From Candidatus Cloacimonadales bacterium (GTDB lineage Bacteria > Cloacimonadota > Cloacimonadia > Cloacimonadales > JAIOQZ01): a stretch of DNA of 64,000 bases. Under the pieces are notes generated by a model. That model ran no database searches, was not told where the DNA came from, and saw only the letters and a list, made by a program, of their open reading frames with translations. Made by a program: the position numbers and the translations under genes. Location: contig CAXXTU010000002.1 of NCBI GenBank assembly GCA_963662655.2, forward strand, positions 128,001-192,000, in the 5' to 3' direction. Of this stretch, positions 25,731 through 56,773 are shown piece after piece (position 1 is the stretch's first letter; each line of letters starts with the position of its first letter).

Positions 25731-25851
25731 GCGCTCGGGGGCGGCGTAGGAAGTCCGGAGGACTTCCTGATTCAGCCGATCCATTTCAAACGTACTGTTA
25801 GAAATGGATCGGCTGAATCGTGCGCGGAGCGCACACGCCGCCCCCGGGCGC
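25731..25851 (+). repeat. Cloverleaf (four-way junction) palindromic element, copy A
   Basis: 17-bp closing stem plus hairpins of 9, 19 and 6 bp with no unpaired bases at the junction. Confidence 0.85.
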
Positions 25852-25920
25852 TGAGACGGATGGCGGACTTGAGCTATCGCTACGATGAGCGTGGTTCCAT
25901 AGGGGAGAAACGGCGGAGAA

Positions 25921-26499
25921 CTAGGGTTTGAGGAGCTTCTGCCAGTCAACCGGGCCTTTCACGAATCGATCGACAAGCATCTGGTAGGCCTGTGTGTTGC
26001 CCTCTTCAAAGAACTTGAGAACGTTGTCCCACTCCTGGCCAGAAAGAAATCCTGTTTCGTAGGCAGTTAGCAGCGTATGGCTTTCGTCGATCAGGTTGAA
26101 CTCGACGATGGTGTACATGTTGGCCGAAGCCTTCTGGACGCTTTCGGGAAACCCTTTTCCAAGCGGTGATTGCAACGTTATCATCTTCCACGGGATGAAG
26201 TTGACGATGAAATTTATGACCGTGCCGGCGTCTCCGATCTCACCATCGAGATCGTACCGGCTTTTCAAGGTTCCTCCGCTCCGGAAATCGATTTCGCATT
26301 TCGGAACCGCCCATGTTTCGAGCCCTTCTTTCGTCGTATAAGCTTCCCAAACATCCTCGAAGGGTGCCGGAACCACCACTTCGTGGATCAAGACACGCTC
26401 TCCGTTCTCGTGCGTTATTACACGCACTTCCACGTCCTGCGCAAAGCCCGGAATGATGGCAAGCAATGCGAATAGGATAGCGATTACGTTTTTCCTCAT
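25921..26499 (-). CDS. Secreted SRPBCC/AHSA1-like (START fold) protein
   Basis: Signal peptide; EVVVPAPFEDVWEAYTTKEGLETW...IDFRSGG pattern; C-terminal helix. Confidence 0.8.
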   Translation of the reverse strand: MRKNVIAILFALLAIIPGFAQDVEVRVITHENGERVLIHEVVVPAPFEDVWEAYTTKEGLETWAVPKCEIDFRSGGTLKSRYDLDGEIGDAGTVINFIVNFIPWKMITLQSPLGKGFPESVQKASANMYTIVEFNLIDESHTLLTAYETGFLSGQEWDNVLKFFEEGNTQAYQMLVDRFVKGPVDWQKLLKP

Positions 26500-28538
26500 G
26501 ATTGATTCCCCGAAGTTGTGTCGTCGAATTTCACCATGTACTCGTTATCGGCGTATTCATCGTATTCAACGGTCTCGAGATGCTTGAACTGTTCCAGGAT
26601 TTTCTGGATACGCTGTATCGACTTGTTAATGTTGCCGAAATATTGTATCTGCTTCTCGTTGAGCTGCTCGGTGGGTGTGGTCATCTCGAGCATTTCAAGC
26701 GAACCGCGTAAAATCATTAACGGCTGATTGAGCTCGTGATTTGCGGTAACGGCCATAGCAAGAGCGGAAGATTTTCTCTCGAGCTCGAGCTGATTCTTCT
26801 CGCTCTTCTTGCGCATCGTTATATCACGGATACTGGCGATGATCGCTTCCTTTCCCTGATACTCGATGCGACTGAAAACAACCTCGGAATCGAAGATATT
26901 CTTTCCCGAAGGATCGCAGGATATCCACTCGCGGATGATCGTGTTTCCCTGCAAGACTCTCTCCCAAATCTCGGGAAGCTGGCTCAATGGATTCCGCTTG
27001 TCGGAGAAATCGAACTGGAAATAGGAGGCCAGTGCGCTTTGCTCCGTCGTCTGGAAAAGACTCAGGGCTTGTTTGTTCACGCTGAGGACTTTCCCGTTGC
27101 GGTTCAGAATCATGATTGCGTCGTGGACGCTGTCGAAGATGGATCGAAGCGTGTTCTCGGAGTGGCGCAGGGAATTTCCCATTCGCTCCACCATCTTGAT
27201 CTCGTCCCGCAGCTCCCTTGTACGATCCTCCACAGCTTTTTGAAGCTCCTGTGATGCGGCAAGCTTGCGCCGATACTGGAGGTAGATGAAGAATGAGGTC
27301 AGGAGTACGATAAACAGGCTGGTGGCAACGAGAAACAGTGCCAGATTGCGTCTCTGGAGCTGCATGTTGTTTATTTCCATGTTCTTCTGTACCAGTTCGC
27401 TCTCTCGTGTGCTGTTCTCGATCTCATAGGCTGTGTTCAATTTGGCTATTTGCTCGTTCGCCAACGTAACGGCAAGGCTGTCGTCAAGATTGTTGAATTT
27501 AATGTAATAATCGAGCGCGAGCTTTGGGTTCTTCTGTTTCTGGTATATCTCATAATACATGAAATAGCAATGGCGTACATAACTTCTCGCGACCTGGGTA
27601 TGGATCGGTCTCAGCGCTTCCAAAGCTCGATCGAGATACTCCCGGGAAAGGTTGAGCTTTCCCCAGTTGAAATACAGAACGGCGATGTTTCGTAATGCGC
27701 TTCCATAGAGCTCTCTTCTTCCCGAGTGCTTTCTGATATCGAGAGCTTTCTCGTTATATTTGAGACTGTTGTTGAAGTCCCCTAGCTTGTAGTAGGCGAA
27801 AGCAAGATCGGTGTAGGTATCCGAAATATCCATTCTTCTGTTGAGATTCTCGAATTTCTTCAGCAGGTCTTTGTAGAAAATGACAGCCTTGTAGTATTCT
27901 CCCATGTCGAGATAGGCCTTCCCAATATAGTTAAGGGCATGGTAAACACCATATTGATCTCCCACAGAACGATATAACTGCTCTGCGATACCGTAATAAG
28001 CGATAGCGTGATTGGTCTCGCCCCGGTTCAGATAGGTCTGGGCAATTTCTTGAAAGATATCCGCCCTCTGCTCCGTTTCGCTCTCATCGAGGTAACCGAG
28101 GGCTTTCCTGTAAAACGTCAGGGCCATGCTGTAGTTTTCGACGTAAAAGTATATCTTACCAATGTATTTAATTGTGCTGGCTATTCCTGATGGATTGTCG
28201 ATCTTCTCGTTCAGGTGATAGGACTCGAGAAAATACGACATCGCCTTGTCGAAGTCGCCCAACAGCCGATAGCATTCTCCAATAATGATGAGAGCTTTAA
28301 TCTGCTGATCGATATCCTGCATACGTCTTGCAATACTGAGCGCTCGCTGGCTATACCCCAGTGCGCGAACAGCGTCGAAATCAAACTCCGAATCGAGCAA
28401 ATCCTCGGATGCCTGAAGCAGTTGCTCCGTCTTCTCGGCTTGAGAAAGGTTTTGCAGATTGATTTCAAGACTATCTGCGGATTCCACCCCATATACAAGA
28501 ACTGGGAGAAAAAGCAGAACGATGAGAATTTTTCGCAT
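26496..28538 (-). CDS. Membrane sensor: periplasmic TPR array, TM, PAS, HisKA-like tail without ATPase domain
   Basis: Signal peptide, many TPRs, TM (LALFLVATSLFIVLLTSFFIY), PAS (IFDSVHDAIMIL...IRDITMRK), ANHELNQPL H-box, then ends ~70 aa later. Confidence 0.8.
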   Translation of the reverse strand: MRKILIVLLFLPVLVYGVESADSLEINLQNLSQAEKTEQLLQASEDLLDSEFDFDAVRALGYSQRALSIARRMQDIDQQIKALIIIGECYRLLGDFDKAMSYFLESYHLNEKIDNPSGIASTIKYIGKIYFYVENYSMALTFYRKALGYLDESETEQRADIFQEIAQTYLNRGETNHAIAYYGIAEQLYRSVGDQYGVYHALNYIGKAYLDMGEYYKAVIFYKDLLKKFENLNRRMDISDTYTDLAFAYYKLGDFNNSLKYNEKALDIRKHSGRRELYGSALRNIAVLYFNWGKLNLSREYLDRALEALRPIHTQVARSYVRHCYFMYYEIYQKQKNPKLALDYYIKFNNLDDSLAVTLANEQIAKLNTAYEIENSTRESELVQKNMEINNMQLQRRNLALFLVATSLFIVLLTSFFIYLQYRRKLAASQELQKAVEDRTRELRDEIKMVERMGNSLRHSENTLRSIFDSVHDAIMILNRNGKVLSVNKQALSLFQTTEQSALASYFQFDFSDKRNPLSQLPEIWERVLQGNTIIREWISCDPSGKNIFDSEVVFSRIEYQGKEAIIASIRDITMRKKSEKNQLELERKSSALAMAVTANHELNQPLMILRGSLEMLEMTTPTEQLNEKQIQYFGNINKSIQRIQKILEQFKHLETVEYDEYADNEYMVKFDDTTSGNQS

Positions 28539-28713
28539 AAACAGCCTATAGCAAGACAATAATTTTTTTATTGAACAATGAGTATTTTACTCGAAGAACT
28601 CCATGTCACTTCAAAGACAAAGCTGAAATTCCGACAAATGCTTACTTTGTCAATCGAATTTGATATCGTTGCATTCGAAAAAATTCCGTCTGGCAACGAG
28701 TCCTATCATATCG

Positions 28714-29469
28714 TTAGCTTGTCTTCTTGCCTACCGGCGCAATGTAAACCGTGAATTCCTCATCCCCGTCAACGCGAAGAAGCTCGTCGACTTTTTGCTG
28801 ATGGTACGCGCCGATAGCGCATGTCCCTGCCTGGATTGCCTCGCATGCGAGATACAGGTTCTGGCAGAGATGCCCGGCATCCACTGCGATGACCTTATGA
28901 GCCACTTCGACGTATCTCCATTCCATCCTGTAGGGAATGGCTGTCCACAAGAAAGTAACGGCGGCGGTACCGGCAAACTGCTGTCCATGAACAGCTTCAA
29001 TGAGCTTCGTTTCGTGCTCTTTTTCGCTGAAGAGAAACATCAGAGCATGCTCGATGGGGAGGTAGCGATAGAATCCCTTTGTCAACCCGTCCACATTCCG
29101 CACAGCGAGATAGGTCTCGAACGCGTGGCGGTTACCCGCGGACGGCACGGTACGGAAGATTCGTTTCGGATTGTCGAAATCCCTGATTCCCTGCGTCGTC
29201 CACAGGAGAAAGGACAGTTCTTGCAAGGTTATCGCTTCATCGGAGAATTTCCGGTGGCTCTTCCGTTGCTGGATCGCCGCGAGAAGCGAAATCTCGGGAA
29301 TCTCGTTCCACTCTTCGGGTGGAGAGAACATAATAAGATGTGTTCCATCGGGATACGGCTTCTGAATGGGAGGCATGGGAAAGCCATTCTGCTGGTCGGC
29401 TTTGCTGAAATCGGCATGAAGCCTGATGGTGTCTTTCAAAAACTCTCGGGCGGTATCGAATCGGCTCAT
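28714..29469 (-). CDS. SagB/ThcOx-family nitroreductase-like flavoprotein
   Basis: RKSHRKF, RTVPSAGNRH, DAGHLCQNLYL, GTCAIGAY. Confidence 0.88.
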   Translation of the reverse strand: MSRFDTAREFLKDTIRLHADFSKADQQNGFPMPPIQKPYPDGTHLIMFSPPEEWNEIPEISLLAAIQQRKSHRKFSDEAITLQELSFLLWTTQGIRDFDNPKRIFRTVPSAGNRHAFETYLAVRNVDGLTKGFYRYLPIEHALMFLFSEKEHETKLIEAVHGQQFAGTAAVTFLWTAIPYRMEWRYVEVAHKVIAVDAGHLCQNLYLACEAIQAGTCAIGAYHQQKVDELLRVDGDEEFTVYIAPVGKKTS

Positions 29470-29480
29470 TACTTGACTCC

Positions 29481-30179
29481 TTAGATGAGTATTTTTTCTC
29501 GTACGAAGGACAGGAAATCGTTGTCTCCTATCACGATGTGGTCCAGAACCTGGATTTCCACCAACTCCAGCGCTTCCCGGATTTGCCGGGTTATCAGGAT
29601 GTCGTCCCTGGATGGCGTTGTGTTTCCTCCCGGGTGGTTGTGAACAAGGATAACTGCGTGGGCGTGATGCATGAGGGCGTTCTCGACGATCTTCCGCTTG
29701 TAGATGGCCGATTGATTGAGGGTGCCGTGAAACAGCGTTTCTTCAGCGATAATCATGTTCTGCGTGTTGAGGAATATCACTTTGAATTCCTCGGTCTTCT
29801 TACCCTTGTAATGCGTTTTCAGATACTTGACGACATCATCGGCGCTGGAGACGTAATCATGGTTCAATATCTTCTCTCTCAGATGGAAGCAATTCACGTC
29901 GCGCAGGAGCTTAAGCAAGACCGCGGAGCGCTCTCCAAGCCCCTCCACTTCGATGAGCTGACTGACGGGAGCATTCAACACGCCGGTAAGATTACCGAAT
30001 CTGCGGATCAGCTCCTTGGCGAGGCTGCGCGTGTCCTTACGGACAATCGAGTAGGACAGGACGAGTTCCAGTACTTCGTAGTCATGGAATCCATCCAGGC
30101 CGTCCCTGACAAAGCGGTCTCGCATTCGCTGTTTGTGAAGCTGCTGGTCGTCACCGGGAAGTTTCGTCCTGGTCGGCAT
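29481..30179 (-). CDS. radC: RadC-family JAB domain protein
   Basis: HKQRMRDRF, YEVLELVL, HhH, HNHPGG...PSRDD, VLDHIVIG. Confidence 0.93.
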   Translation of the reverse strand: MPTRTKLPGDDQQLHKQRMRDRFVRDGLDGFHDYEVLELVLSYSIVRKDTRSLAKELIRRFGNLTGVLNAPVSQLIEVEGLGERSAVLLKLLRDVNCFHLREKILNHDYVSSADDVVKYLKTHYKGKKTEEFKVIFLNTQNMIIAEETLFHGTLNQSAIYKRKIVENALMHHAHAVILVHNHPGGNTTPSRDDILITRQIREALELVEIQVLDHIVIGDNDFLSFVREKILI

Positions 30180-30182
30180 TGG

Positions 30183-30626
30183 TTACGACTTCTCTCCCCG
30201 GACAAGCCAGGGCTCGATGCGATCCTTATGCTTTTCGGAGAAATAGGTGTATTTGCTGCGGCTGAAACCGTTCTCATCGAACAGGCGGTCGAACAAGTCG
30301 ATCACGCGACGGTGAGAAATGAAGCTCTTGACGACGATGGCGAATCGAACCAGCTTCTTGCTGAATAGCAGTTGTTTATACTCGTCGAGGACTTTTGCGA
30401 TTTTATAAAGGTTCGTTTGGCGGGAATTCACGTGCTTCGCATTGAATACCAGCAGGAAACTGCGGAATGATCTGGAATCGTTTACGATAAATTCCAAACA
30501 TTGCTTCAATACCGGTTCCGCGTTGCTGAGCTTCAGCTCGTAGACCTGAACAGTTTCTTTCCCCAATTGCAGCGGGTAACGTGCAACCGATTCTTCCGCT
30601 TTATCGAAAATATCCTGTAAAGGCAT
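30183..30626 (-). CDS. Hypothetical protein
   Basis: 147-aa ORF with AGGAG RBS, co-oriented between asd and radC; no family recognised. Confidence 0.65.
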   Translation of the reverse strand: MPLQDIFDKAEESVARYPLQLGKETVQVYELKLSNAEPVLKQCLEFIVNDSRSFRSFLLVFNAKHVNSRQTNLYKIAKVLDEYKQLLFSKKLVRFAIVVKSFISHRRVIDLFDRLFDENGFSRSKYTYFSEKHKDRIEPWLVRGEKS

Positions 30627-30665
30627 GACAACTCCTTGGATGCTTTCTTCGAAACTAGTATATTA

Positions 30666-31649
30666 TCATTTCACACTGTTTGCAAGATAAATAATATGCT
30701 TCAGGATTCGAACTGCGTTCGTGGCAGCGCCGAGGCGAACGTTGTGGCCGACATTCCAGAACCGTAACGAGTTGTCGTCGAGTCCTTTCCTTACCCGGCA
30801 GATAAAGCTTTTATCCGAGTCTCCGATTTCAGCGGGAGTAAAAAAATCTTCCCGCAGGACGCTCAGGCCCGGGCTGGTTTCGAGAATGTCCAAGGCAACC
30901 ACGGGCGAAACCGGCTTCTCGCACTCGATGTAAACGCTTTCGCTGTGCCCGTAAAGCACGGGCACTCGCACCGTTTCGGCGGAAACCTGGATGCTATCAT
31001 TGCCGAGTATCTTGCATATCTCGCTGTGCATCTTCAATTCTTCCTCGCAGTACCCATCCTCCGAGAATGCGCCAATCTGCGGGATGACATTCATGTCGAT
31101 CCTGCGCGTAAACACACGATGCTCAGGCGAGCCTTCCCTCTGCGCGAGGAGCTCCTGGATACCTTTGTTACCCGCGCCCGAAACGGACTGGAAAGTCGTG
31201 ACGATAACCTTCTTCAGGCCGAATTCCCTGGCGAGAGGATGCAGGGCGAGCACGAGCTGGATGGTCGAGCAATTAGGGTTCGCGATGATACCTCGATAGT
31301 TCTGCAGCAGGTGGCCGTTGATCTCGGGGACAACCAGAGGAATGACGGGATCCTTGCGGAAGGCAGAGGAATTGTCGATGATCGTGTTTCCGGCTTTCTG
31401 TGCGATGGGAGAGAATTTTCTGGAGGTTTCGCCCCCCGGGGAGAACAACAGGAAATCGTATTCCTTCTGCATGGCTTCTGCGGTTAACGGCTGTACTGAT
31501 ATGCTTTTACCGCGATATTCCAATTGAGTGCCGGTTGACCTGGGGGATGCGAAGAGCTCGAGGTTATCGATAGAAACTTGTTGCTCATCGAGCAGGCGAA
31601 TCATCATCCGCCCCACGGTTCCGGTTGCGCCGACGATACCAATGTGCAT
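30666..31649 (-). CDS. asd: Aspartate-semialdehyde dehydrogenase
   Basis: GATGTVG, IDNSSAFR, VVPEIN, ANPNCST, QSVSGAG, RVPVLYGHSE, GAATNAV. Confidence 0.96.
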   Translation of the reverse strand: MHIGIVGATGTVGRMMIRLLDEQQVSIDNLELFASPRSTGTQLEYRGKSISVQPLTAEAMQKEYDFLLFSPGGETSRKFSPIAQKAGNTIIDNSSAFRKDPVIPLVVPEINGHLLQNYRGIIANPNCSTIQLVLALHPLAREFGLKKVIVTTFQSVSGAGNKGIQELLAQREGSPEHRVFTRRIDMNVIPQIGAFSEDGYCEEELKMHSEICKILGNDSIQVSAETVRVPVLYGHSESVYIECEKPVSPVVALDILETSPGLSVLREDFFTPAEIGDSDKSFICRVRKGLDDNSLRFWNVGHNVRLGAATNAVRILKHIIYLANSVK

Positions 31650-31743
31650 AATGTGTCCTTACGATGATATTCTTCAATTGTCGTCATTCTATCGATGCGG
31701 ACAATTTCTCACAAGAAAAATCCAGAGGAAATAGCGAGAGCAC

Positions 31744-31780
31744 AAAAAAAACCGCTGCACTTGGTAAAGTATCAGCGGTT
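31744..31780 (-). terminator. Rho-independent terminator
   Basis: Minus strand AACCGCTG...CAGCGGTT followed by a T run, downstream of the 31798-32349 gene. Confidence 0.7.
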
Positions 31781-31797
31781 AAAAAACTTGTTGAAAG

Positions 31798-32349
31798 TTA
31801 CTCGATTGCGTCAACGACGATACCTACGGTGATAGCGCCGATCGTTTTATCCCCGTCTTTAACAGGCACCGAAACCTGAACGGTCTCTTGTTCGGTACTG
31901 GCGTCGTACTTCTTCTCGTCGATGAAAATCTTGCCAGCTCCACCAGCGAATGACGCAGTAAATTTCTCCTCATCTCCCTGCCAGTAATCAGAGGTGAAAT
32001 CACTCAATCCGACAAGAGCTCCGTTTTCATCCATCACGAATATCTCGCTATAGTAAGCTTTCATGGAAGTGAGTTTCTGCAAGTACTGGCTGCATTCGTT
32101 GCCAATCAAATCGTTCATGAATTTGGTCGGCGTTTTTGCTGATATCCATTCAGCGTCAGTCTTCTTGATGGTGTCCATCGATTCGTTTTGGGCATTCTTT
32201 TCTTTTACAGCATTCACGATTACGGGATCGTTTCCAAGCTTGACCACCACATTCGTAATCAGCTTGAGCAAGCCGGGATGCGGTTCTTCGGCGATGAGTG
32301 TGATTGTTAACAAGGAAAAGATAAGCGTCAGTAAAAAGAGTTTTTGCAT
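31798..32349 (-). CDS. Secreted stand-alone Cache/PDC-like sensor domain protein
   Basis: Signal peptide; EIFVMDENGALV...TSDYWQGDEEKF...VSVPVKDGDKTIGAITVG; GGAGG RBS. Confidence 0.75.
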   Translation of the reverse strand: MQKLFLLTLIFSLLTITLIAEEPHPGLLKLITNVVVKLGNDPVIVNAVKEKNAQNESMDTIKKTDAEWISAKTPTKFMNDLIGNECSQYLQKLTSMKAYYSEIFVMDENGALVGLSDFTSDYWQGDEEKFTASFAGGAGKIFIDEKKYDASTEQETVQVSVPVKDGDKTIGAITVGIVVDAIE

Positions 32350-32446
32350 AGTACCTCCCTGAGAATACGATCCATATACCGGACCATTTATACAAAGGTA
32401 CTACGGCATTCCGCGAAAAACAAACTGAAAATTAACTGAAATCAGA

Positions 32447-33211: not shown

Positions 33212-33242
33212 AGCATCTCCTCAAATCAACCTCATGAAATCA

Positions 33243-33271
33243 TTTATATAATAAAACGCTGGTCTTGTCAA
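33243..33271 (-). promoter_or_regulatory. Putative sigma70 promoter for the amidohydrolase gene
   Basis: Minus strand TTGACA-17 nt-TATAAA. Confidence 0.55.
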
Positions 33272-33510
33272 TGAAAAGAACGCTCGTAACCTTTTCTGTG
33301 CGAATATTTCCTGAAGAAAATGCCGAAAAGGCGAGGAATCCTTAAAATTGTCAGCGCCGCAGGGAAGATGGATGCTATTCTTGATCTGATTTGTTTCAAA
33401 GAAATTAGCCCGTACAAGGGATTCGGGCGTTCGATCAGGGATTCTGAACCGACTTCAGATGCGCGCTAACCAAATTATTCGTATATTTCCAGTTTCATTG
33501 GCAAGATGTG

Positions 33511-33539
33511 TTGACATCATTTCCACGTCATGGTAAATT
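33511..33539 (+). promoter_or_regulatory. Putative sigma70 promoter for the pilM-like operon
   Basis: TTGACA-17 nt-TAAATT with an extended TG; a second TTGACA at 33602. Confidence 0.55.
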
Positions 33540-33664
33540 ATCATTAAGTAGTTGTCACAACAGAATTAGTGCAAAATCATCGGAGAATTGGTCATATTTA
33601 CTTGACACTCAATGCGTTAATATCTTAATTGGGTAAATCGCATTTATCCGGAGGAGATGTCTAA

Positions 33665-34663: not shown

Positions 34664-34668
34664 GATAG

Positions 34669-39496: not shown

Positions 39497-39567
39497 TATT
39501 GTACGATCTCACGCAGCAGGTGCGATCGGGCGAAGATGCGCGTGTAGCCACGAATAGGTCCGATACA

Positions 39568-46418: not shown

Positions 46419-46573
46419 GCGCGGGGGGCGGCGGGTGTGCTTCGCACACAATTCTCTCATGATGTCGGGCATCGTCCGACATCATGAGAGAATCCGGAAG
46501 CCCGTTGTTTTCCCGCACGTATTCCTGATGAATATGTGCGCGATTTTCCGGGCTTCCGCCGCCGCCCCCGCGC
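46419..46573 (-). repeat. Cloverleaf palindromic element, copy B (inverted relative to A and C)
   Basis: Closing stem GCGCGGGGGGCGGCGG/CCGCCGCCCCCGCGC; GTGTGC-TTC-GCACAC; 18-bp central stem; CGGAAGCCCG/CGGGCTTCCG arm with an internal extension. Confidence 0.85.
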
Positions 46574-46710
46574 GTGAGGGCCCCGCCATTCGACGAATGT
46601 ACCACCTCCAGTTAGTCGCTTCGGACAGGGGGAATGAGAAATTCAACTTGACGCGTATCTTGAAGCGTGAATTATCTTTCACGAACAAACACAGAAAAGA
46701 AAGGTCTGAG

Positions 46711-47439
46711 ATGCAGAAGAGATTGAAGTTGTTCCTTATACGTAAGTTCAAGGGTATTATTTACCGCGTAGAGATACACCGGTTTGTCGGACTTCTCGAG
46801 AAACCGCTTCTAACCATGTCATACTTGATAAAGGCATCGCGCTGGATCGCTGCAAACAAGGATGTTCCGCTCAACGATTTCTATACTCCTGTGAGGGATT
46901 ACAATAAACGCTACAGAGCTTACAAGTATCTGTTCGAAATGGAAAAACTCGATCTCCCTGTCGATTACCTTGAGTTTGGCGTGTTTGGCGGAAAGTCATT
47001 TCAGTGGTGGGCGAGCGCCAACAAGCATCCCGAATCGAGATTCGTTGGCTTCGATACCTTCTCCGGGCTTCCGGAAGACTGGGACATGTTCAAGAAGGGG
47101 GATATGTCCGTCGACGGGAATGTCCCGCAGATGGATGATGCGAGATGCAGCTTCGAAGCTGGGCTCTTTCAAGATACCCTGCCCGGATTTCTGTATAAGT
47201 TCGAACGAAGAAGCAGACTTGTGATCCACATGGATGCCGACCTCTATTCATCGACCCTGTACGTGCTTACCTCTCTGGCTCCAATCTTGAGAAAGGGCGA
47301 TATCATCCTGTTTGACGAATTCAACATTCCACTGCACGAGTTCAGGGCCTTTACGGATTTCGTCGAGTCGTACTACATAAAGACGAAGTTATTGACGGCT
47401 GTCAACAACTACTACCAGGTCAGCATGAAGATCATGTAG
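46711..47439 (+). CDS. TylF/MycF/NovP-like class I SAM O-methyltransferase
   Basis: YLEFGV, GFDTFSGLPE, GLFQDTLP, HMDADLYSST, ILFDE. Start set at ATG 46711, downstream of TTGACG at 46648. Confidence 0.85.
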   Translation: MQKRLKLFLIRKFKGIIYRVEIHRFVGLLEKPLLTMSYLIKASRWIAANKDVPLNDFYTPVRDYNKRYRAYKYLFEMEKLDLPVDYLEFGVFGGKSFQWWASANKHPESRFVGFDTFSGLPEDWDMFKKGDMSVDGNVPQMDDARCSFEAGLFQDTLPGFLYKFERRSRLVIHMDADLYSSTLYVLTSLAPILRKGDIILFDEFNIPLHEFRAFTDFVESYYIKTKLLTAVNNYYQVSMKIM

Positions 47440-48662: not shown

Positions 48663-48704
48663 GAGAGAAACGAACCCTTATTAATGCAGAAACTGGAGTT
48701 GATT

Positions 48705-51700
48705 ATGAACAAGAAGTATCTCATCTTGCTTTTGATCATGGCAATCGTAGTGACAGCTTTCGCTGCACCGCGAATAATTGACGGACAACAAACAGATAAA
48801 GTGTTCATGTCAAAAAGCGCTGATGACGCTGGAACGATTCTTGAATTCAGTTTACCTGAGATGGTAATGAATGACGTAGAAGTTGAGGGGCAAACTTACC
48901 AACGATTTGATTTCGAAAACGCCGGTTTCACCATTGAAGCCGGATATCCTGAGTTACCAACATTCAATACATTTGTCGCAATCTCCGAGCGGGGAAATGT
49001 GTCGGTTGAGATGACTGTTTTACAAGAAGACGTCTACGAAAACGTCAATATCTATCCCGCACAGGGTGTACGCCTCGACGGCATGGATCCGCCGTTTTCG
49101 ATCAACACGAACTATTACAGCGGTAAGAAACAGTGGTCTCAGAAGGCTGTCGCAATCAGCGAACCGATGATTCTCCGCGATTTTCGAGTTGCGAGCTTAA
49201 CCGTGAATCCCATGGAATACAATCCGGTTACGAAGAGGCTACGCGTTCTCAGAGAAGTTGAAGTGCAGGTTCGAAACGAAGGTGGAACCGGGCAGAACGA
49301 ATTGATCGGGGCCCGGAAACAATCCCGAAGTTTCGAGAACATATACCGCTCGATGATAACCAACTATGAAACCCTTCGCGATGAGGAACCGGAATACCAG
49401 CAGCGAAGCATGATCGTGATCTATCCCTTTAACAGTCAGCTTCAGCAATACATCGATAGCTTCATCGACTGGAAGCGCAACAAGGGCTTCAAGGTCATCG
49501 ACGCTCCGACCAACGAAATCGGAACCTCGACCAGCGCGATCAAGAATTACATTCAGGATCAGTACGAAACGCTCGAGGATCCACCTGAGTTTGTCGTCCT
49601 GATTGGCGATGTGGGTGGTACGATTGGCATTCCAACCTGGATTGAAAGTTTCACCACCTACGATGGAGAAGGGGATTACCCATACACACTGCTCGCAGGA
49701 AACGATTACTTACCGGAAATGTGTATCGGGCGCATCTCGGTATCAAATGTCTCCGAGTTCATGACGTATCTCACGAAAGTGAATATCTACGAACGCAACA
49801 TCAATATGGATGATACTGCATTTTACCGACGGAATCTCCTCGTCGGCGACACAACTCCTTCAGGATTGTCTTGTGTTGTCACGAACAAGTATATCAAAGA
49901 GCTGATGTTGGCATATCAGCCCGATCATACCTTTACAGAACTATACAGTGGCGATCCGTCCCCGAACGACATGAATGCGGCCATGAACAATGGTACCTTG
50001 TTTTTCAATTATCGCGGGTATGGAGGAATGAGCGGATATGATAATTACGAAATCGAGGCGTTGACCAATTACAACAAGCTTGTCAACACCGTAATACTTA
50101 CATGCGATACCGGTTCGTTCGGGAGTTTTTCCCGGACGGAAGATTTTATCCGTGTTGGGTCTCCCTCCACGCCAACGGGAGCGATAAGCTCCATTGGTCT
50201 GGCAACGATCGGAACGCATACGCGATACAACAACACAATCACTTCAGGTATTTTCGCAGGTATCTTCGAGTACGATATGAGAACGATGGGTGAAGCGCTT
50301 GTCGCTGGTGAGATGCAGATGTATCGCACGTACCAGAATGTCGATTGGACATCAACGCAGGCCTTCATTCACTGGTGTAACCAGATGGGTGACCCGACAC
50401 TGGACATCCTGACGGACATCCCGATCATACTGCATGCGGAGTATGCCGATGAAATTCCATTGGGCCAAATGTTCATTGAAGTGGAAGTTACGGATGAAAC
50501 AAACGATCCGGTTGAGGACGCATGGGTCACCGCCCGTATGGACGAGGATGCAGTTTACGCGACCGGTTATACCGATGAAAACGGTCACATCATTCTCCGC
50601 TTTAACGACTCGGTAGCTGGCGATGTAAGCCTCGTCGTAACAAAACCCAACTACAAGCCGGTTCTTGGCGGCTTCGATATCCTCAATTCGGGGTCCATCG
50701 CCTATAACGCGATGAATATCGACGACGACGCCTCCGGTGAATCTCAGGGTGATGGTGACGGTGAAGCCAACCCGGGCGAGACCATCGAACTGGTTATCAG
50801 CCTCCGGAACTTCAGCTCATCCTCGATAGCAAATGTCTCGGGTGAACTGACCACTGACGATCCTTACGTCACGATCTCGGATTCCGAAGAAGATTTCGGG
50901 ACGATAAGCGCCAACGGAACAGCCGAATGTACGGACGATTTCGACATTTACATTCACCCCGATGTGCCGGACAACCGCGAGATCGAGTTCACGCTCGATC
51001 TGGGCGTCAATGGCGTGACGAAGTTCTGGCTCCCGATTCGCGGTAACGATCTCGACATCATGTACTGGGATGTGTCGGATAACGGCAACGATGTACTCGA
51101 TACCGGGGAAACGGCTCCATTCTTCATCACTGTAAAGAACAACGGCGCTGTCAATATGGATGATGTGTGTGCAGTCTTGCGATGTCCTACGGGTCTTATC
51201 GATATTGAAGACTCGCTTGCAACATTCGGCGACATTATGATCAGCGAATCGGTGCAGTGTACTCAGGATGGTTTTATTCTGACTGGCAGGACTCAGCTGG
51301 TTACCGGTATGCAGGTTGAACTCGAACTGATGCTTTACAATGAATCGGGCTATCACGAAACGGAATATCTGACCATACCGATCGGCATTGTTACCGTCGA
51401 TGATCCGCTTGGCCCGGACGCACACGGCTATCTGTGTTACGATAGCGGCGATACCGACTATTACCAGGTTCCCTCGTACGATTGGGTCGAGATCGATCCG
51501 AATCTCGGCGGTTATGGAACGAATACTGGGATGTCGGACACCGCACAGGAAGGCGACGAGATCGTTATCATGGAATTGCCGTTCCCATTCAGCTTTTATG
51601 GCAAGAGCGAAACGATCGTCAGCATATCAACCAACGGTTGGATCACCTTTGGCGAAACGGAGCAGGTCACATTCCGTAATTTCATCATACCCGGACCGAT

Positions 51701-54128
51701 GGGCCCAAGCCCGATGATCGCTGCTTTCTGGGACGACCTGTACACAACGGGCGGCGGTGTTTACACCTATTTCGACAGCGACATGAATTACTTCGTGATC
51801 GAGTGGTCAAACTGCAAGAATTCTGCGGGTAACGCAACGGAGACATTCGAGATCATCCTGTACGATCCTGCTTTCTATCCTACGTCAACCGGTGACGGCG
51901 AGATCAAGATACAATATCACACATTCAACAATGTCGATTCAAACGTTTCTTCCGGAGGCCCTCAGGGTAACTACTGCTCGGTAGGTATCGAGGACGAGAC
52001 CGCATTGGTGGGCCTGAACTATACATACAACAATGAGTATCCGACAGCGGCAAGGCATCTCGCGAGCGGGATGGCGCTGCTGTTCACGGGGATTCCATTG
52101 TCCATGGAACACTCGTACCTCACAATGGGCGATCTCTTTCTGAACGATACCAACGGCAACGGACTGGTCGAATCCGGAGAGATGGTTAACCTCGGGATTT
52201 CTCTGAACAACATCGGGCAGCAGACCGCCCAGGGCGTTCATGCAACCCTTTCCTCCACCGACCAGTATGTGGAAGTGCTTTCGAACCATTCGTACTATCC
52301 GAACATCGAAGACGGCGGGAGCGAGTACGGCACGAGCTATTTCTCATTTATTGTCGATGAGGATGTTCCCGACGGTTACATGATTCCGTTCCTGCTCGAG
52401 GCGTCTTGCACCAACGGTACCTGGAGTTACACGTTCTATCGCAAGGTTTACAAACCGAGCATCGAAGTAGACCTGTACCTGATCAACGATGAAGCAGGAA
52501 ATGGCAACGGAACCGCTGAACCGGGTGAAGACTTCACATACGTCGTATCGCTCCTCAATACGGGCTTGGTCGATGCACATAATGTGGTTGCGACGGTCTC
52601 GACAACCAGCCAGTACCTCGATATCACGACGCCAACGTTTGAATACGGAATGATAACTTTCGAAAACAGCATTCAGGGGGTTTTCGGGATGAGCTTGTCG
52701 AGTTCGGCTCCGTCCGAGACAGGCATTCCCGTCTTGATTACCATCACTGCCGACGGTATGGAGCCCATCGAAGTTGAGTCGATGATTGGTTCAGGCGTAT
52801 CGCCCGGAGTATTCGAAGAGCACTTCACAACCTTCCTGCCGGATGGCTGGACCATTGACGCCAACGCAGAAAACTGGACACAATCCCTTACAGCATCGGC
52901 CGGGGGAGAGATGCCTGAAGTGAAGTTCAATTGGAGTCCCCAGTTTGAAGGTACATCAAGGATGATTACGCACCAGATGAATCTGATCGGCGCTACAAAC
53001 GTGTCTGTCCAGTTCAAGTACTCGTTGGACGATTATGGCCATAGCGGTTACAGTATTGGACTGGCCGCACGCTCGGACAGCTTTGACTGGACGTCCTTGT
53101 GGGAGATTGCTCCTGCCGACGATATTTCCATGGAAATCATGACCGTAAACGTTCCTCAGCAATACGTGAATGCAATGAATCTGCAATTCGCATGGTACTT
53201 CAGTGGGCGCTCGTTTAATATCAACCAGTGGTACATCGATGATGTCGTGCTGAATGCGATTCTTGGGAACGGTGGAACCATATCCGGAATCGTCACCCTG
53301 GACAATCCGGACGACAGTCCTGAGCATGCAGTTGTCAAGGCTGGAGATTATTCCACGCATCCGGATTCGACAGGGTCCTACAAACTCTACGTACCCAAGG
53401 GGGAATTTCCTGAGTTGAGGGCGTCGAACAAGTGGTATGAACCTGCTTCGTATTACGACCTGGAAATCGATTTCGGCGATACATTGGAAGACTACGATTT
53501 CAATCTGTCATACTTCGTTCCGCCTACCGGGCTCACCTTCACAATGGAAGACGAGACGATGATCCTCGACTGGAATTACGGCGATGACAGGGGGAACGAC
53601 TTAAGACGCAACGGTACTCGCGACCGTCTTGATTTCAGTCATTTCAAGGTCTATCGGCAGATCGATACGAGTAATTTTATGGAAATCGCCACGACGGAGG
53701 ATATGACGTTCTCCGAGGTTATCGATACGACCCTCTACCATGAGTATTACGTAACGGCAATTTATACCTCAGGCGAGAGCGACTCGACCAATCATGTAAC
53801 GAGCGCGGACTGGTACCCCCACGATGCGAATCCGGATGGAGTTCCCGCGTTTGTTAATCATCTCGGGAAGAACTATCCGAATCCCTTCAATCCGGAAACG
53901 ACGATCCAGTTCTCGATTGCGAACAAAGAGGAAACGGAGCTCATCGTTTATAACGTGAAAGGCCAGAGGGTCCGTACGCTCATCAAAGACAAGCTTGAGG
54001 CGGGTAAGTACACAATCCGATGGCAAGGTGAAAACGACACCGGAAAACAAGTTTCTTCCGGCGTTTATTTCTATAAACTCAAGGCTGGAGACTTCAGCAG
54101 CGTTCAGAAGATGCTACTCCTGAAGTAG
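48705..54128 (+). CDS. Very large secreted C25-family protein with repeated Ig-like modules and FlgD-Ig/T9SS-like CTD
   Basis: GYPELP propeptide, LIGD, IGRIS, FNYRG, LTCDTG, MGDP; several D-x-x-G-N-G...GE modules; NYPNPFNP...SSGVYFY...KMLLLK. GGAG RBS before ATG 48705. Confidence 0.88.
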   Translation: MNKKYLILLLIMAIVVTAFAAPRIIDGQQTDKVFMSKSADDAGTILEFSLPEMVMNDVEVEGQTYQRFDFENAGFTIEAGYPELPTFNTFVAISERGNVSVEMTVLQEDVYENVNIYPAQGVRLDGMDPPFSINTNYYSGKKQWSQKAVAISEPMILRDFRVASLTVNPMEYNPVTKRLRVLREVEVQVRNEGGTGQNELIGARKQSRSFENIYRSMITNYETLRDEEPEYQQRSMIVIYPFNSQLQQYIDSFIDWKRNKGFKVIDAPTNEIGTSTSAIKNYIQDQYETLEDPPEFVVLIGDVGGTIGIPTWIESFTTYDGEGDYPYTLLAGNDYLPEMCIGRISVSNVSEFMTYLTKVNIYERNINMDDTAFYRRNLLVGDTTPSGLSCVVTNKYIKELMLAYQPDHTFTELYSGDPSPNDMNAAMNNGTLFFNYRGYGGMSGYDNYEIEALTNYNKLVNTVILTCDTGSFGSFSRTEDFIRVGSPSTPTGAISSIGLATIGTHTRYNNTITSGIFAGIFEYDMRTMGEALVAGEMQMYRTYQNVDWTSTQAFIHWCNQMGDPTLDILTDIPIILHAEYADEIPLGQMFIEVEVTDETNDPVEDAWVTARMDEDAVYATGYTDENGHIILRFNDSVAGDVSLVVTKPNYKPVLGGFDILNSGSIAYNAMNIDDDASGESQGDGDGEANPGETIELVISLRNFSSSSIANVSGELTTDDPYVTISDSEEDFGTISANGTAECTDDFDIYIHPDVPDNREIEFTLDLGVNGVTKFWLPIRGNDLDIMYWDVSDNGNDVLDTGETAPFFITVKNNGAVNMDDVCAVLRCPTGLIDIEDSLATFGDIMISESVQCTQDGFILTGRTQLVTGMQVELELMLYNESGYHETEYLTIPIGIVTVDDPLGPDAHGYLCYDSGDTDYYQVPSYDWVEIDPNLGGYGTNTGMSDTAQEGDEIVIMELPFPFSFYGKSETIVSISTNGWITFGETEQVTFRNFIIPGPMGPSPMIAAFWDDLYTTGGGVYTYFDSDMNYFVIEWSNCKNSAGNATETFEIILYDPAFYPTSTGDGEIKIQYHTFNNVDSNVSSGGPQGNYCSVGIEDETALVGLNYTYNNEYPTAARHLASGMALLFTGIPLSMEHSYLTMGDLFLNDTNGNGLVESGEMVNLGISLNNIGQQTAQGVHATLSSTDQYVEVLSNHSYYPNIEDGGSEYGTSYFSFIVDEDVPDGYMIPFLLEASCTNGTWSYTFYRKVYKPSIEVDLYLINDEAGNGNGTAEPGEDFTYVVSLLNTGLVDAHNVVATVSTTSQYLDITTPTFEYGMITFENSIQGVFGMSLSSSAPSETGIPVLITITADGMEPIEVESMIGSGVSPGVFEEHFTTFLPDGWTIDANAENWTQSLTASAGGEMPEVKFNWSPQFEGTSRMITHQMNLIGATNVSVQFKYSLDDYGHSGYSIGLAARSDSFDWTSLWEIAPADDISMEIMTVNVPQQYVNAMNLQFAWYFSGRSFNINQWYIDDVVLNAILGNGGTISGIVTLDNPDDSPEHAVVKAGDYSTHPDSTGSYKLYVPKGEFPELRASNKWYEPASYYDLEIDFGDTLEDYDFNLSYFVPPTGLTFTMEDETMILDWNYGDDRGNDLRRNGTRDRLDFSHFKVYRQIDTSNFMEIATTEDMTFSEVIDTTLYHEYYVTAIYTSGESDSTNHVTSADWYPHDANPDGVPAFVNHLGKNYPNPFNPETTIQFSIANKEETELIVYNVKGQRVRTLIKDKLEAGKYTIRWQGENDTGKQVSSGVYFYKLKAGDFSSVQKMLLLK

Positions 54129-54158
54129 TGCAACGCTGAAGCAAGAAGCCGAAAATAT

Positions 54159-54196
54159 AACACCGCCCGTGATTCATTTCCGGGCGGTGTTTTTTT
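54159..54196 (+). terminator. Rho-independent terminator
   Basis: AACACCGCCCG...CGGGCGGTGTT followed by a T run. Confidence 0.85.
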
Positions 54197-54212
54197 CATC
54201 GTCAGAAAAACC

Positions 54213-54241
54213 TTGACGCGATAATTATCGTTAACTACTCT
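54213..54241 (+). promoter_or_regulatory. Putative sigma70 promoter
   Basis: TTGACG-17 nt-TACTCT upstream of GGAGG RBS and ATG 54280. Confidence 0.5.
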
Positions 54242-54279
54242 TCATACAACACGTTCAGGAAGACTTGGGGAGGCATACG

Positions 54280-56460
54280 ATGATAAAAATCAATTTGCTA
54301 CTCTTGTTCCTGGTAATTCTACTGAAACTCGGCTCGATCGCCCATCACGTCGATTACCGTGAAGCCGATACCGTCGTTCCCAAGGCGATCGTCGGGGATG
54401 TGATGTTTGCGATGAAGAGCCCTGAAGCTGAATACAAACTCTACGATTTGAGCGATCCCTACAACGTCAAAGAAGCTGGAAGTGTCGAGCATTGCGTTCA
54501 TTTTATCGCAATGGAAGATGATTACCTGGCATTTCTCTGTTGCAGTGACTCCATTTTAATCTACAACATTGAAGATATATACAACCCCTATCTCGATATT
54601 GTTCTTAAGACCAGCATACATGCCTATCATTCCTGGATATCCGGCAAGAACTACAGCCTTGAAATCGACGGGAGTTATCTGTATCTCAACTGGATGTTGG
54701 AGTACGAGGAATGGGGCGAAACGGATGCCTGCGAGGAAATCTGGAATATCAGCAGTCATAGCAATCCTGTAAGTGTATATCACAATGTGGAGTACTGGGG
54801 GGACGGGCTGATCGATAGCATCATCGAGGATGGCCTTGCCTACACGATCAACATCTGGGACGAAAGTCTCAAGATATTCGATGTGACCGAGCCCTTGGAC
54901 TGGAAGGAGATCGGCAAGGCCGAGCTGCCCCGCGATCCGGAGTTTTTCTACAAGCAGGGAGATACCGTACTTGTTTATGACAAGTACGACAACCTCTATA
55001 CGATAGACGTGTCCGATGCGGCCTCTCCAACGATTATCAATGCGGTGAACTTCCCCAGCGGATACAACTTGTTTGTGTGTCACAATGGGCATTACTATCT
55101 GTATGGCAGCAGGATGGGATTTGCTATTCTGGATACGTCCGACATGGGTAATATTTCAATCCTCGCCGAGTTCAGCCTGTATGAGAACTCGACGTTCATG
55201 TTCTTCGTCGATGATTATACGGCAATGGTGCCATGCAAAGACTCCAATCAGTTCATCGATTTCTCTGATCCTGGTTGCGATTTTCTGTGGGACAAATGGA
55301 ATGAATACACGATGTGGCAGTCATACCGCTGTGCATTGCAATATCCTTACTTCTGCGTATTCGAAAAGGGAGGGTTCCATGTTCTGAACGTTTCCGATCC
55401 TGAAGAAATGTATGAGAAAGGGCTTGCCGATTTCGCTGCCGGTAACGTATCGCTCAAGATCGAGATGGCGTATGCGTATTGTACTGGAGGATCGGGTATC
55501 ACGGTGTGCGACATCAAGAAGTCGGGGGGAGTCGGTTTTGTGTCGAGATTCGATATGGCAGGGGGAATAACGGACATCTCTGTTTATAACAGGCACCTTT
55601 ACGCTTTTTGCCATAGCAGGATCAATACGTTCGATCTCGCCAACATTCTGGTTCCGGAAAATCTGGGATGCAATTCAGTGCCATACGGCAATTATCGCAG
55701 TGACGTTTATCAGGGGCACCTGTTCTCATGGGCGGGAGATATTGGAATCACCGTTTTCTCGATTGGCGAGGATTATTTACCCGTCGAGAAGAATCGCATA
55801 TCTGTCGATGCAGTTGTGGAGATTTTGTTCTACGGAGACTACATGTATGCCGTGCGGAACACCGACATTCAAGTCTATAACATCTGCAATGTTTCCAATC
55901 CGGTTTTCGTGACCGCCGTCGAATTCGATCCCATTCACAATGTTACAGCTTGCGCGATCGAGGGCAACGAATTGTATATTTGCGATGCCAATTGGAACCG
56001 GGTACAGACATTCGGTTTGAGCGATCCATCATATCCCGAAATGACGAACGAGCTTTACCTGGATCATCCCATCTATGCGCTTTTCTTCGTCGGCAACGCG
56101 GCGATCATGGATAATGGCTACGGGCTTATCCAGTCGCTGGACCGGACGGCGATATCGACTACGTTTGTACCGCAAATTCCCACGGTCGACCACTTCAAGC
56201 AAAATTACCCCAATCCGTTCAATCCAGAAACGCATATCGAATTCAGTATCAACAAACAAGCACACACCAGTCTGAAGATTTACAACGTCAAAGGCCAACT
56301 GGTTAACACGCTCGTTGATTGTGTCCTTCCGGAGGGTGATTACAACGAGATATGGCGTGGAGTCGATAGCCGGAACAAGCCGGTGTCCTCAGGCGTGTAT
56401 TTCTATCGGATCGAGGCCGGCGGATATCAATCGACCAGAAAAATGCTGCTGATGAAATAA
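54280..56460 (+). CDS. Secreted LVIVD-like repeat protein with FlgD-Ig/T9SS-like CTD
   Basis: Many I(Y/F)D(V/I)S(D/N)P repeats; QNYPNPFNP...SSGVYFY...RKMLLMK. Confidence 0.82.
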   Translation: MIKINLLLLFLVILLKLGSIAHHVDYREADTVVPKAIVGDVMFAMKSPEAEYKLYDLSDPYNVKEAGSVEHCVHFIAMEDDYLAFLCCSDSILIYNIEDIYNPYLDIVLKTSIHAYHSWISGKNYSLEIDGSYLYLNWMLEYEEWGETDACEEIWNISSHSNPVSVYHNVEYWGDGLIDSIIEDGLAYTINIWDESLKIFDVTEPLDWKEIGKAELPRDPEFFYKQGDTVLVYDKYDNLYTIDVSDAASPTIINAVNFPSGYNLFVCHNGHYYLYGSRMGFAILDTSDMGNISILAEFSLYENSTFMFFVDDYTAMVPCKDSNQFIDFSDPGCDFLWDKWNEYTMWQSYRCALQYPYFCVFEKGGFHVLNVSDPEEMYEKGLADFAAGNVSLKIEMAYAYCTGGSGITVCDIKKSGGVGFVSRFDMAGGITDISVYNRHLYAFCHSRINTFDLANILVPENLGCNSVPYGNYRSDVYQGHLFSWAGDIGITVFSIGEDYLPVEKNRISVDAVVEILFYGDYMYAVRNTDIQVYNICNVSNPVFVTAVEFDPIHNVTACAIEGNELYICDANWNRVQTFGLSDPSYPEMTNELYLDHPIYALFFVGNAAIMDNGYGLIQSLDRTAISTTFVPQIPTVDHFKQNYPNPFNPETHIEFSINKQAHTSLKIYNVKGQLVNTLVDCVLPEGDYNEIWRGVDSRNKPVSSGVYFYRIEAGGYQSTRKMLLMK

Positions 56461-56461
56461 T

Positions 56462-56628
56462 GATTTTCGGCTTTGGCGAAGCCAAAACGAAACCAAAGCG
56501 TTGTGACTTTGCGAAGTGAAGTCATGTTAGCAGATTTTCGGCTTTGGCGAAGCCAAAACGAAATCTTGCCGGAAGCACGAAGTGCTGGAGTCGGCTTTCA
56601 CGAAGTGAAAACGGAAAAATCTGCTGAC
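56462..56628. repeat. Cluster of GAA-triloop hairpin repeats
   Basis: GATTTTCGGCTTTGGCGAAGCCAAAACGAAA occurs twice (56462, 56533); a covarying third unit TCGGCTTTCACGAAGTGAAAACGGA at 56591. Confidence 0.8.
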
Positions 56629-56659
56629 GTTCGGTATCTCTGAAATCGGTGCGAACCCT

Positions 56660-56773
56660 CGCGGCGGGGCGGCGTGAAGCCCTGTAAGGGCTTCGGCAGT
56701 TTTTGAAATGTTTTCCATCTGAAAACTTTTCAAAAACTGTTAGTGCGCGAAGCGCACACGCCGCCCCGCCGCG
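56660..56773 (+). repeat. Cloverleaf palindromic element, copy C
   Basis: Perfect 16-bp closing stem CGCGGCGGGGCGGCGT/ACGCCGCCCCGCCGCG; GAAGCCCT-GTA-AGGGCTTC; AT-rich central stem; GTGCGC-GAA-GCGCAC. Confidence 0.85.

Follow-up and report, generated by a model that had tools for sequence, protein, structure and literature searches.

Three structured intergenic elements lie within a 64,000-nucleotide stretch of a Cloacimonadales genome (the window), raising the question of what kind of element keeps its fold while its sequence changes, and how such an element spreads. An initial annotation had described these elements, A, B, and C, as sharing one architecture, and all three were found at the positions given, with the parts described. 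When folded as single-stranded DNA (ssDNA), each formed a closing stem and three arms (z = -16.0 for A, -14.2 for B, and -12.7 for C; 0 of 200 shuffles were as stable). Two details of copy B were revised. The proposed extent of 46419-46573 holds only if mismatches are allowed, and the clean stem spans 46424-46569; its first hairpin, described as short, is an imperfect arm of 64 nt. Copies B and C were matched without differences in assembled contigs from two public runs of one sample, probably the source sample; for B, the match came from one of the two runs. The parts of the three copies are as follows:

25731..25851, + strand: copy A, complete cloverleaf with short arm 1 and long arm 2, between the convergent cheD and AHSA1-like genes
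25731-25747 paired with 25835-25851, + strand: closing stem of copy A, 17 bp
25748..25768, + strand: arm 1 of copy A, short class, GGA loop
25769..25819, + strand: arm 2 of copy A, variable central hairpin, 22 bp
25820..25834, + strand: arm 3 of copy A, fixed 6-bp stem with GGA triloop
25852..25875, + strand: 3′ tail of copy A, unpaired and weakly conserved; the family trend is TGAG...TCGAG
46424..46569, - strand: copy B, complete cloverleaf, between a divergent C25-peptidase gene and one for a TylF-like methyltransferase
46495..46558, - strand: arm 1 of copy B, 64 nt, imperfect; the shortest member of the long class
46451..46493, - strand: arm 2 of copy B, perfect hairpin, 18 bp
46435..46449, - strand: arm 3 of copy B, GAA triloop
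46395..46418, - strand: 3′ tail of copy B
56660..56773, + strand: copy C, complete cloverleaf, flanked by a gene whose product has a secretion C-terminal sorting domain and by a convergent hypothetical gene
56676..56694, + strand: arm 1 of copy C, short class
56697..56739, + strand: arm 2 of copy C
56743..56757, + strand: arm 3 of copy C, GAA triloop
56774..56797, + strand: 3′ tail of copy C, which matches the family trend poorly and overlaps the end of the convergent gene

Many copies per genome had been predicted. Using a motif scan checked against a reversed-genome control, we identified 76 full copies in the 3.8-Mb genome and one in the control; two further copies are truncated and lack the 5′ half. 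The density, about one copy per 50 kb, is below the rate extrapolated from three per 64 kb. Copies range from 105 to 203 nt, and all 76 are intergenic, 43 at strand switches and 20 between divergent genes. Their orientation is unbiased with respect to neighboring genes (23/20/19/14) and replication (36:37), and their spacing is Poisson-like (CV 0.98), with no tandem clusters or arrays and no fixed orientation to a cassette gene. All-against-all BLAST of the 152 genes adjoining copies revealed no recurring enzyme-like family; the largest cluster consists of 25 mostly large proteins, and a secretion-type C-terminal tail is present in 23 of the 152 neighbors versus 189 of 2,783 genes. A sequence-free architecture scan for relatives with another frame recovered 50 of the 76 known copies and no new ones, and gave one match in 2.4 Mb of a congener (G001).

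A four-way junction, formed by the closing stem and three arms, is predicted for all 76 copies. Arms 1 and 2 are long/long in 34 copies, short/long in 33, long/short in nine, and short/short in none, so arm length looks constrained. The earlier proposal that structure rather than sequence is conserved was upheld: central-arm halves are 45% identical between copies (43% when shuffled), while their pairing is near perfect. Covariation agrees: when 10 copies were aligned by sequence only, both partners had changed in 37 of 63 pairs, a number that none of 500 shuffles reach, with the structure taken from copy A and a shuffle that related sequences can beat. Among long/long copies, arm-1 and arm-2 similarity is uncorrelated (rho 0.02), showing that the arms vary independently; flanks and arms also vary independently of each other. 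The ends of the closing stem vary between copies and co-vary within each copy. Outside the stem lies unpaired, weakly conserved sequence, overlooked in the initial annotation and asymmetric in extent: about 24 nt at the 3′ end compared with about 10 nt at the 5′ end. The outer flanks of a copy do not pair with each other.

Several ideas about these parts were set aside. No support emerged for the 3′ tail forming a fifth hairpin, pairing with the 5′ flank, or existing on its own as an empty target. Arms gave no convincing match elsewhere in the genome that would make them captured spacers (best E 0.007 among 146 short hits). An apparent circularly permuted unit at C2:2159049 / 2239179 is explained by the adjacent ISL3.

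Stems are about 98.5% Watson-Crick, with 52 mismatches among the 3,603 positions walked. There was no G.T excess in a census of clean stems (G.T 9 versus A.C 13); a second census counted 24 A.C and 12 G.T mismatches (p = 0.065). The fixed arm 3 carries a GNA triloop in 55 of 76 copies, with any of the four bases in the middle, and of its 17 non-GNA triloops, five read as GNA in reverse complement, which hairpin flipping would produce. Arm-1 loops are GNA in six copies and its complement in eight. Because the stems are Watson-Crick without a G.T excess and the GNA triloop is so frequent, we favor a DNA rather than an RNA element. The complement of the GNA-loop strand folds slightly better, by a median of 0.85 kcal/mol as DNA and 1.7 kcal/mol as RNA. 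With respect to the active strand, this better fold and the A.C excess in the second census were counted against an HUH ssDNA reading.

In the phylum genomes searched, the family is confined to one genus. The motif occurs in four of 232 genomes of the phylum, all of that genus, with one copy in each of three congeners, and was not found in the other 228 genomes searched. Pattern scans returned two loci in the GTDB collection, both in congeners, and none in viral contigs; plasmids and phages also contained no match. At least 16 metagenome matches were judged to be chance, since the best scored 26.7 bits versus 112-130 for real copies and lies within a coding gene. The copy in G002 does not count as evidence for horizontal transfer, since the contig that carries it seems mis-binned from an organism resembling this genome (G000). 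One orthologous site holds a copy in G001 and G003 and none in G002 and G000; between G001 and G003, the copy keeps its frame while both arms have changed. The suggested comparison with Rfam gave no match at gathering or E-value thresholds, ARAGORN detected no tRNA, and literature listings, together with the passages cited here, contained no description of such a family.

We observed a new association with gene-order breakpoints; the initial annotation had anticipated neither this nor how rare the element is in relatives. In a synteny comparison covering 62% of one congener, 18 of 20 copies lie at breakpoints versus 9.9 expected (0 of 5000 matched draws). This genome looks scrambled, far more rearranged than its congeners. 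A copy occurs at both ends of three of 220 broken adjacencies, versus 2.1 by chance, and at one end of 37. As only one end of a break is marked and breakpoint sites also gather unrelated repeats, we regard the link as an association only. Among the congeners' Y1 transposase sites, four of seven correspond to an orthologous flank in this genome that lies no more than 84 nt from a copy (post hoc, p = 0.024).

The observation that no cognate enzyme is visible in the window extends to the whole assembly. Y1 transposase (PF01797) was not found in G000, protein and tblastn searches being blank or yielding chance matches, in an assembly that has gaps (a pyrE-like gene is missing). In relatives, none of 16 Y1 loci has a cloverleaf within 1.5 kb, and other repeats occur there instead; these searches did not demonstrate the proposed HUH/RAYT link. 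Searches for an IS91-type Y2 transposase gave matches in 0 of 5 and 0 of 8 genomes, with positive controls equally without signal. IS110, TnpB, resolvase, and integron integrase were not found in G000, and the GIY-YIG search yielded a 613-aa frame, a broken fragment, and nothing else. What the genome does contain is six tyrosine-recombinase matches, ISL3 and IS3-like genes, with the ISL3 end seen unrelated to the cloverleaf, and one reverse transcriptase match, to a gene broken by stops, with the nearest copy about 10 kb away.

Traces of movement at the element ends were also sought. No excision joint was detected in contigs, which drop rare forms, from two runs of one sample. No target duplication of 2-8 nt, at any offset, stood convincingly above the shuffled maximum (best 18 versus 16, at 2 nt). 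At the distal end of the tail, about 20 nt from the stem, 23 of 76 copies have CTCG on the opposite strand, versus 2 of 76 control windows. At the other end, IS91 target words are not enriched (copies of 76 versus control: CTTG, 6 versus 5; GTTC, 5 versus 2), nor are their complements (GAAC, 3 versus 7; CAAG, 3 versus 3). A GTAG/GGAG tag 5′ of either foot occurs in 0 of 76 copies, CGTC/GACG is present in 11 of 76 without fixed position, and no larger insertion sequence bounded by the same inverted repeats turned up within the distances that the motif census covered.

The explanation we consider best, with about even confidence, is a REPIN-like non-autonomous element moved as folded ssDNA by an HUH transposase missing from the assembly. 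The earlier suggestion of a non-autonomous mobile element stands in part, as dispersal without orientation bias fits it. A tyrosine transposase of the HUH type would recognize the cloverleaf by its shape in ssDNA and move it in trans, reading the GC closing stem, the small GNA hairpin, and the arm geometry and leaving the arm sequence free to drift. As congeners hold one copy each, the element may have been amplified in this lineage from a rare ancestral one. Mobility is supported by inner parts that are nearly identical although their sites are unrelated and their flanks differ (the arms of the copies at C2:126265 and C2:1122904 are 88% and 95% identical), and by the filled and empty orthologous site, the Poisson-like spacing, and the lack of gene or replication bias. 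The absence of target duplication and the asymmetric ends are HUH-like traits; CTCG at the tail end and the copies near four of the seven orthologous Y1 sites may point the same way. Copies may swap arms at the conserved junction, as suggested by the uncorrelated arms of long/long copies, with fold-back copying and/or selection keeping them paired. Most of the breakpoint link (about 60%) would reflect insertion into plastic intergenic sites that gather other repeats, and the remainder (about 40%) one-ended events that carried neighboring genes. The orthologous G001/G003 copy with changed arms, which could mean a host function, was noted against a transposon reading, as were the HUH gene not found in this gapped assembly, the Y1 loci of relatives without a cloverleaf, and the failure to find a GTAG/GGAG tag, enriched IS91 target words, or an excision joint.

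We regard as unlikely that the family represents a new mobile class defined by shape only, an ssDNA four-way junction with interchangeable arms served by an undiscovered strand-transfer enzyme, whose one-ended moves carried genes and scrambled the gene order here while congeners remained collinear. Decidedly unlikely is a DNA structure that serves the host, either as a cruciform or four-way junction to which a host protein binds or by separating transcription units as a barrier, and that spread from an ancestral single copy by ectopic gene conversion or break repair and not through a dedicated transposase. Retention of that single copy at one G001/G003 site with its frame intact, the exclusively intergenic positions, many at strand switches, the lack of an enzyme, and arm-1 loops of both GNA and its complement, as in a two-strand cruciform, all favor such a role. 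However, the element is dispensable, as it was lost from or never present at the G002 and G000 site and was not found in 228 other genomes of the phylum; copies are also unoriented to genes or replication, lack a U tract, and include those between divergent genes, and a host role gives no route to 76 copies. An attC-like recombination site, at which a tyrosine recombinase recognizes folded ssDNA, would account for the breakpoint enrichment and the independent variation of arms and flanks if pairwise recombination had scrambled the chromosome and swapped arms, and six tyrosine-recombinase matches are at hand. This account, weakened because copies are expected at both ends of a break and mark both about as often as by chance, is improbable, and no integron integrase, arrays, cassette orientation, or outer-flank pairing was found.

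We assign a similarly low probability to a structured RNA, a single-copy noncoding RNA (ncRNA) in congeners, that either spread as a SINE-like or retron-like retroposed sequence or acts as an RNA-stability element. Retron ncRNAs consist of a closing stem around short and long hairpins, a layout that the cloverleaf may resemble, and the very stable, covarying fold, the single copy per congener, and the slightly better RNA fold of the complementary strand fit this idea. Against it, there is no Rfam match, G.U is not tolerated on either strand in the clean-stem census, loops are triloops and not tetraloops, the sole reverse transcriptase match is the distant, stop-interrupted gene, and no target duplication was found. 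Very improbable, and largely excluded, is an ordinary MITE of a DDE insertion sequence, whose terminal inverted repeats would make up the closing stem. The size, inverted ends, stable fold, and intergenic positions are as expected for a MITE, and ISL3 and IS3-like genes are present, but target duplications are missing, the inverted ends vary among copies and co-vary within each, conserved sequence runs on asymmetrically beyond them, and the motif census revealed no longer element with such ends, the ISL3 end being unrelated.

Known miniature mobile DNAs were detected by their common sequence. Here most of the element is almost without shared sequence although its predicted geometry does not change, and a standard repeat search would miss such a family or break it into several. 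Should an HUH enzyme move the cloverleaf, the element would provide a shape-read ssDNA substrate of natural origin that tolerates cargo, and a system for testing how REPIN-like elements preserve pairing during sequence turnover. With a gene order that looks far more rearranged than in its congeners, the genome also lends itself to the question of whether small structured repeats bring about rearrangements or colonize their junctions.

Integron attC sites are shape-read ssDNA with a variable inner structure. The cloverleaf, as putative shape-read ssDNA with a variable interior, would be analogous; unlike attC, it has no integrase, arrays, or cassette polarity, and its flanks form no paired outer boxes. 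From the passages cited, the repeat resembles the REPINs and BIMEs associated with RAYT in being dispersed, intergenic, lineage-specific, and 100-200 nt long (PMC3116915, PMC8266576). As in REPINs, whose spacers are described there as constrained in length (PMC3116915), inverted ends close the fold, the inner part keeps its length and pairing rather than its sequence, with compensatory changes, and the ends are asymmetric. A RAYT-type enzyme gene can be lost, according to part of another account (PMC3733652). Unlike REPINs as these passages portray them, the cloverleaf has ends that pair together and are not self-complementary REPs, no GTAG/GGAG tag, three hairpins on a four-way junction with modular arms in place of a doublet hairpin, no tandem clusters, and no RAYT in the assembly or, flanked by the element, in relatives.

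TIRtrons/TIRYT, in the sections cited, are likewise families of inverted repeats without a tag, moderate in copy number and associated with Y1 transposases; their repeats flank the Y1 gene, whereas the cloverleaf does so at 0 of 16 loci, and these sections describe no four-way junction or exchangeable arms (PMC3733652). Like the IS91 family as excerpted, the repeat has two unlike ends and subterminal palindromes and lacks a target duplication, and CTCG, the terIS cleavage word, which stands at one end in 23 of 76 copies, may be a further parallel; one-ended transposition would fit its one-sided association with moved DNA, but the target words CTTG/GTTC, next to oriIS, are not enriched, and the excerpt describes no cloverleaf derivative of 110-190 nt (PMC13181058). 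Compared by description, in the portion cited, bcr1 of the Bacillus cereus group differs in having 5-bp flanking direct repeats, which the cloverleaf lacks; bcr1, which is transcribed, is similarly about 155 nt long and dispersed, with a cruciform-like fold, compensatory changes, and no encoded enzyme (PMC3184786).

The window lies in the source genome, G000 (3.81 Mb in two contigs), at G000:C2:128001-192000, and the three cloverleaf elements described there in the initial annotation are present:

25731..25851 (+), copy A, intergenic, between convergent cheD and AHSA1-like genes
46424..46569 (-), copy B, intergenic, between divergent C25-peptidase and TylF-like genes
56660..56773 (+), copy C, intergenic, flanked by a secretion-tail gene and a hypothetical one

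When folded as single-stranded DNA, each yields three arms set on a closing stem (z -12.7 to -16.0). A long ORF (46435-47439) extends through copy B; since its Pfam matches and similarity to relatives start well downstream, we treated this copy as intergenic. Another palindromic repeat (56463-56630), common to many sites in the congeners G001, G002, and G003, is clustered directly beside copy C.

As the annotation predicted, G000 carries many copies. A motif-plus-pairing census detected 75 in G000, compared to 1 in the reversed genome; with one copy from an earlier, looser census, the family totals 76 full copies. Two further copies lack the 5′ half. Short GC-rich hairpins at G000:C2:100900-100950 and 754280-754330 resemble the closing stem without arms and are possible collapsed copies. 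With G.T pairs forbidden, 76/76 copies folded with exactly three branches, and 75/76 left 0-6 junction bases unpaired. The 6-bp stem of arm 3 is fixed; its loop is a GNA triloop in 55 copies and the reverse complement of GNA in five, and of the remainder 12 have other triloops and four have tetraloops. GNA triloops with a C-G closing pair are especially stable in DNA. Arm 1 is either 16-32 or 64-96 nt in length; for arms 1 and 2, respectively, 34 copies were long/long, 33 short/long, nine long/short, and none short/short.

Pairing is maintained where sequence is not. Identity between copies in the halves of long arm 2 was 45%, compared to 43% in shuffles, with some small subfamilies present, and both sides varied in 37/63 pairs of a sequence alignment of 10 copies. 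A walk along 3,603 stem positions, which ends at larger defects and is thus biased toward clean stems, revealed 52 mismatches, including nine G.T and 13 A.C. In a census of predicted folds, 24 of 101 were A.C and 12 were G.T (p = 0.065). The complementary strand is predicted to fold slightly better. Beyond the closing stem lie ~10 weakly conserved bases on the 5′ side and ~24 on the 3′ side, which pair neither with themselves nor with one another and which, on their own, were no more frequent than background.

Among long/long copies, arm-1 similarity did not predict arm-2 similarity (rho 0.02), and copy pairs with arms 88-95% identical had flanks that were much less alike. From these sequence comparisons, we infer that arms and inner parts have been exchanged between copies. 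Saturated divergence could also account for the missing arm-1/arm-2 correlation. The flipped arm-3 loops (5/17 non-GNA triloops, ~1 expected) suggest fold-back copying, by which perfect stems could persist without selection.

All 76 copies are intergenic by our own ORF calls, made with a caller that misses AT-rich genes. They showed no bias relative to neighboring genes or replication direction (36:37), and their spacing along G000 is random. One copy, with part of a TPR gene, was taken along in an ISL3-mediated chimeric duplication (G000:C2:2157549-2160730 and 2239155-2240378); G000 contains 13 near-identical ISL3 copies. The motif is present in 4/232 genomes of the phylum, all of one genus, and a covariance model was positive in 4/61 genomes, all of that same genus. 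The Rfam comparison proposed in the annotation returned no matching family, and searches of viral, plasmid, phage, and metagenome sequences yielded no real match. G001 and G003 each carry one copy beside queD, with the frame kept and both arms different; this site lacks the cloverleaf in G002 and G000, although its boundaries are not clean. The G002 copy is on contig G002:C10, whose genes have second copies, 70-75% identical, elsewhere in G002 and whose composition is nearest to G000. This contig is probably mis-binned from a G000-like organism. Its genes, including a pyrE-like gene, are absent from G000, indicating that the G000 assembly has gaps.

Gene order in G000 was set against that of G001 over the initial 2.4 Mb of the latter's 3.89 Mb (1,326 orthologs). 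Where both neighbors had orthologs, 18/20 element sites coincided with gene-order breakpoints, compared to 108/259 other wide gaps (p = 2e-5); allowing intervening genes, the values were 15/16 and 112/191. Matching for spacer length and strand class gave 9.9 expected, and 0/5000 draws reached 18. In all three congeners, the flanks of A, B, and C are widely separated, fall on different contigs, or were not detected. After cheD and after a xer gene, the next conserved gene is common to the three congeners and different in G000. At similar nucleotide distance, G002 and G003 kept the gene order of G001 at 6/6 distinct loci scorable in both, and in G000 that order was broken; most of these loci had been picked for their proximity to mobile genes, and the comparison uses an unrooted tree.

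Several observations limit a putative causal role of the cloverleaf in rearrangement. Copies occur at only 33/284 breakpoints; of 220 broken ancestral adjacencies, 37 had a copy at one end and three at both. As 2.1 were expected at both ends, recombination between copies is disfavored as the cause. A second structured repeat family, unrelated to the cloverleaf, is also enriched at breakpoints (20/28), while a third repeat is not (3/7). G001's own repeats occupy 47/260 gaps broken in G000 and 11/413 others, an eight-fold enrichment, which argues that plastic sites collect repeats in both lineages. In a post hoc comparison, 4/7 Y1 transposase sites of the congeners had a cloverleaf ≤84 nt from the orthologous flank in G000, a pattern compatible with common hot spots or with common HUH targeting. 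PMC11708052 puts forward the idea that insertion sequences move into DNA breaks already present, which would be a further way for one-sided junctions to arise.

The second family consists of long imperfect hairpins with variable, perfectly paired inner stems (111 motif hits in G000, 14 in 2.4 Mb of G001). It lies mostly after gene ends, is oriented 77:30 relative to replication, and has one partial copy in the window (about 39500-39545). Separately, an intergenic stretch of ~120 nt upstream of a small gene (G000:C2 about 2900690-2900820; G001:C1 about 1640560-1640690) is conserved far above its surroundings and is possibly a regulatory RNA.

By analogy, and from the asymmetric ends, the DNA-type hairpins, and the lack of target duplication at the copies, an HUH enzyme may move the cloverleaf. 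We found no Y1 transposase in the gapped G000 assembly. Y1 transposases are present in 5/5 relatives, flanked by repeats other than the cloverleaf; the congeners have several such genes, with a separate repeat family for each, and G000, in which none was found, is the most repeat-rich. Y2/IS91 searches gave no match, but their positive controls were also silent. Integron integrase, IS110, TnpB, and resolvase genes were not found in G000; IS110 transposase has 17 copies in G002 and none in the other three congeners. The sole reverse transcriptase gene found in G000 is broken: AT-rich, with one internal stop codon (G000:C2:981042-982600), it is unrelated to the cloverleaf.

The cloverleaf family is real, undescribed, and lineage-restricted; its predicted geometry is unusually strict, and its arms are apparently interchangeable. 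A literature search, with most subscription papers outside its scope, found no description of it. For comparison, we used papers defining REP and TnpA-REP (PMC8266576) and describing TIRtrons and enzyme-less CGTC repeats (PMC3733652), IS91 words and one-ended transposition (PMC13181058), and MITE and bcr1 features (PMC3184786), together with titles on msDNA-like repeats among the references of PMC6868368. Our best reading, to which we give an even chance, is a REPIN-like non-autonomous single-stranded DNA element. In contrast to REP/REPIN members, the cloverleaf has no tag, REP doublet, or RAYT (REP-associated Y1); its kinship with REPINs appears to be one of way of working rather than of membership.
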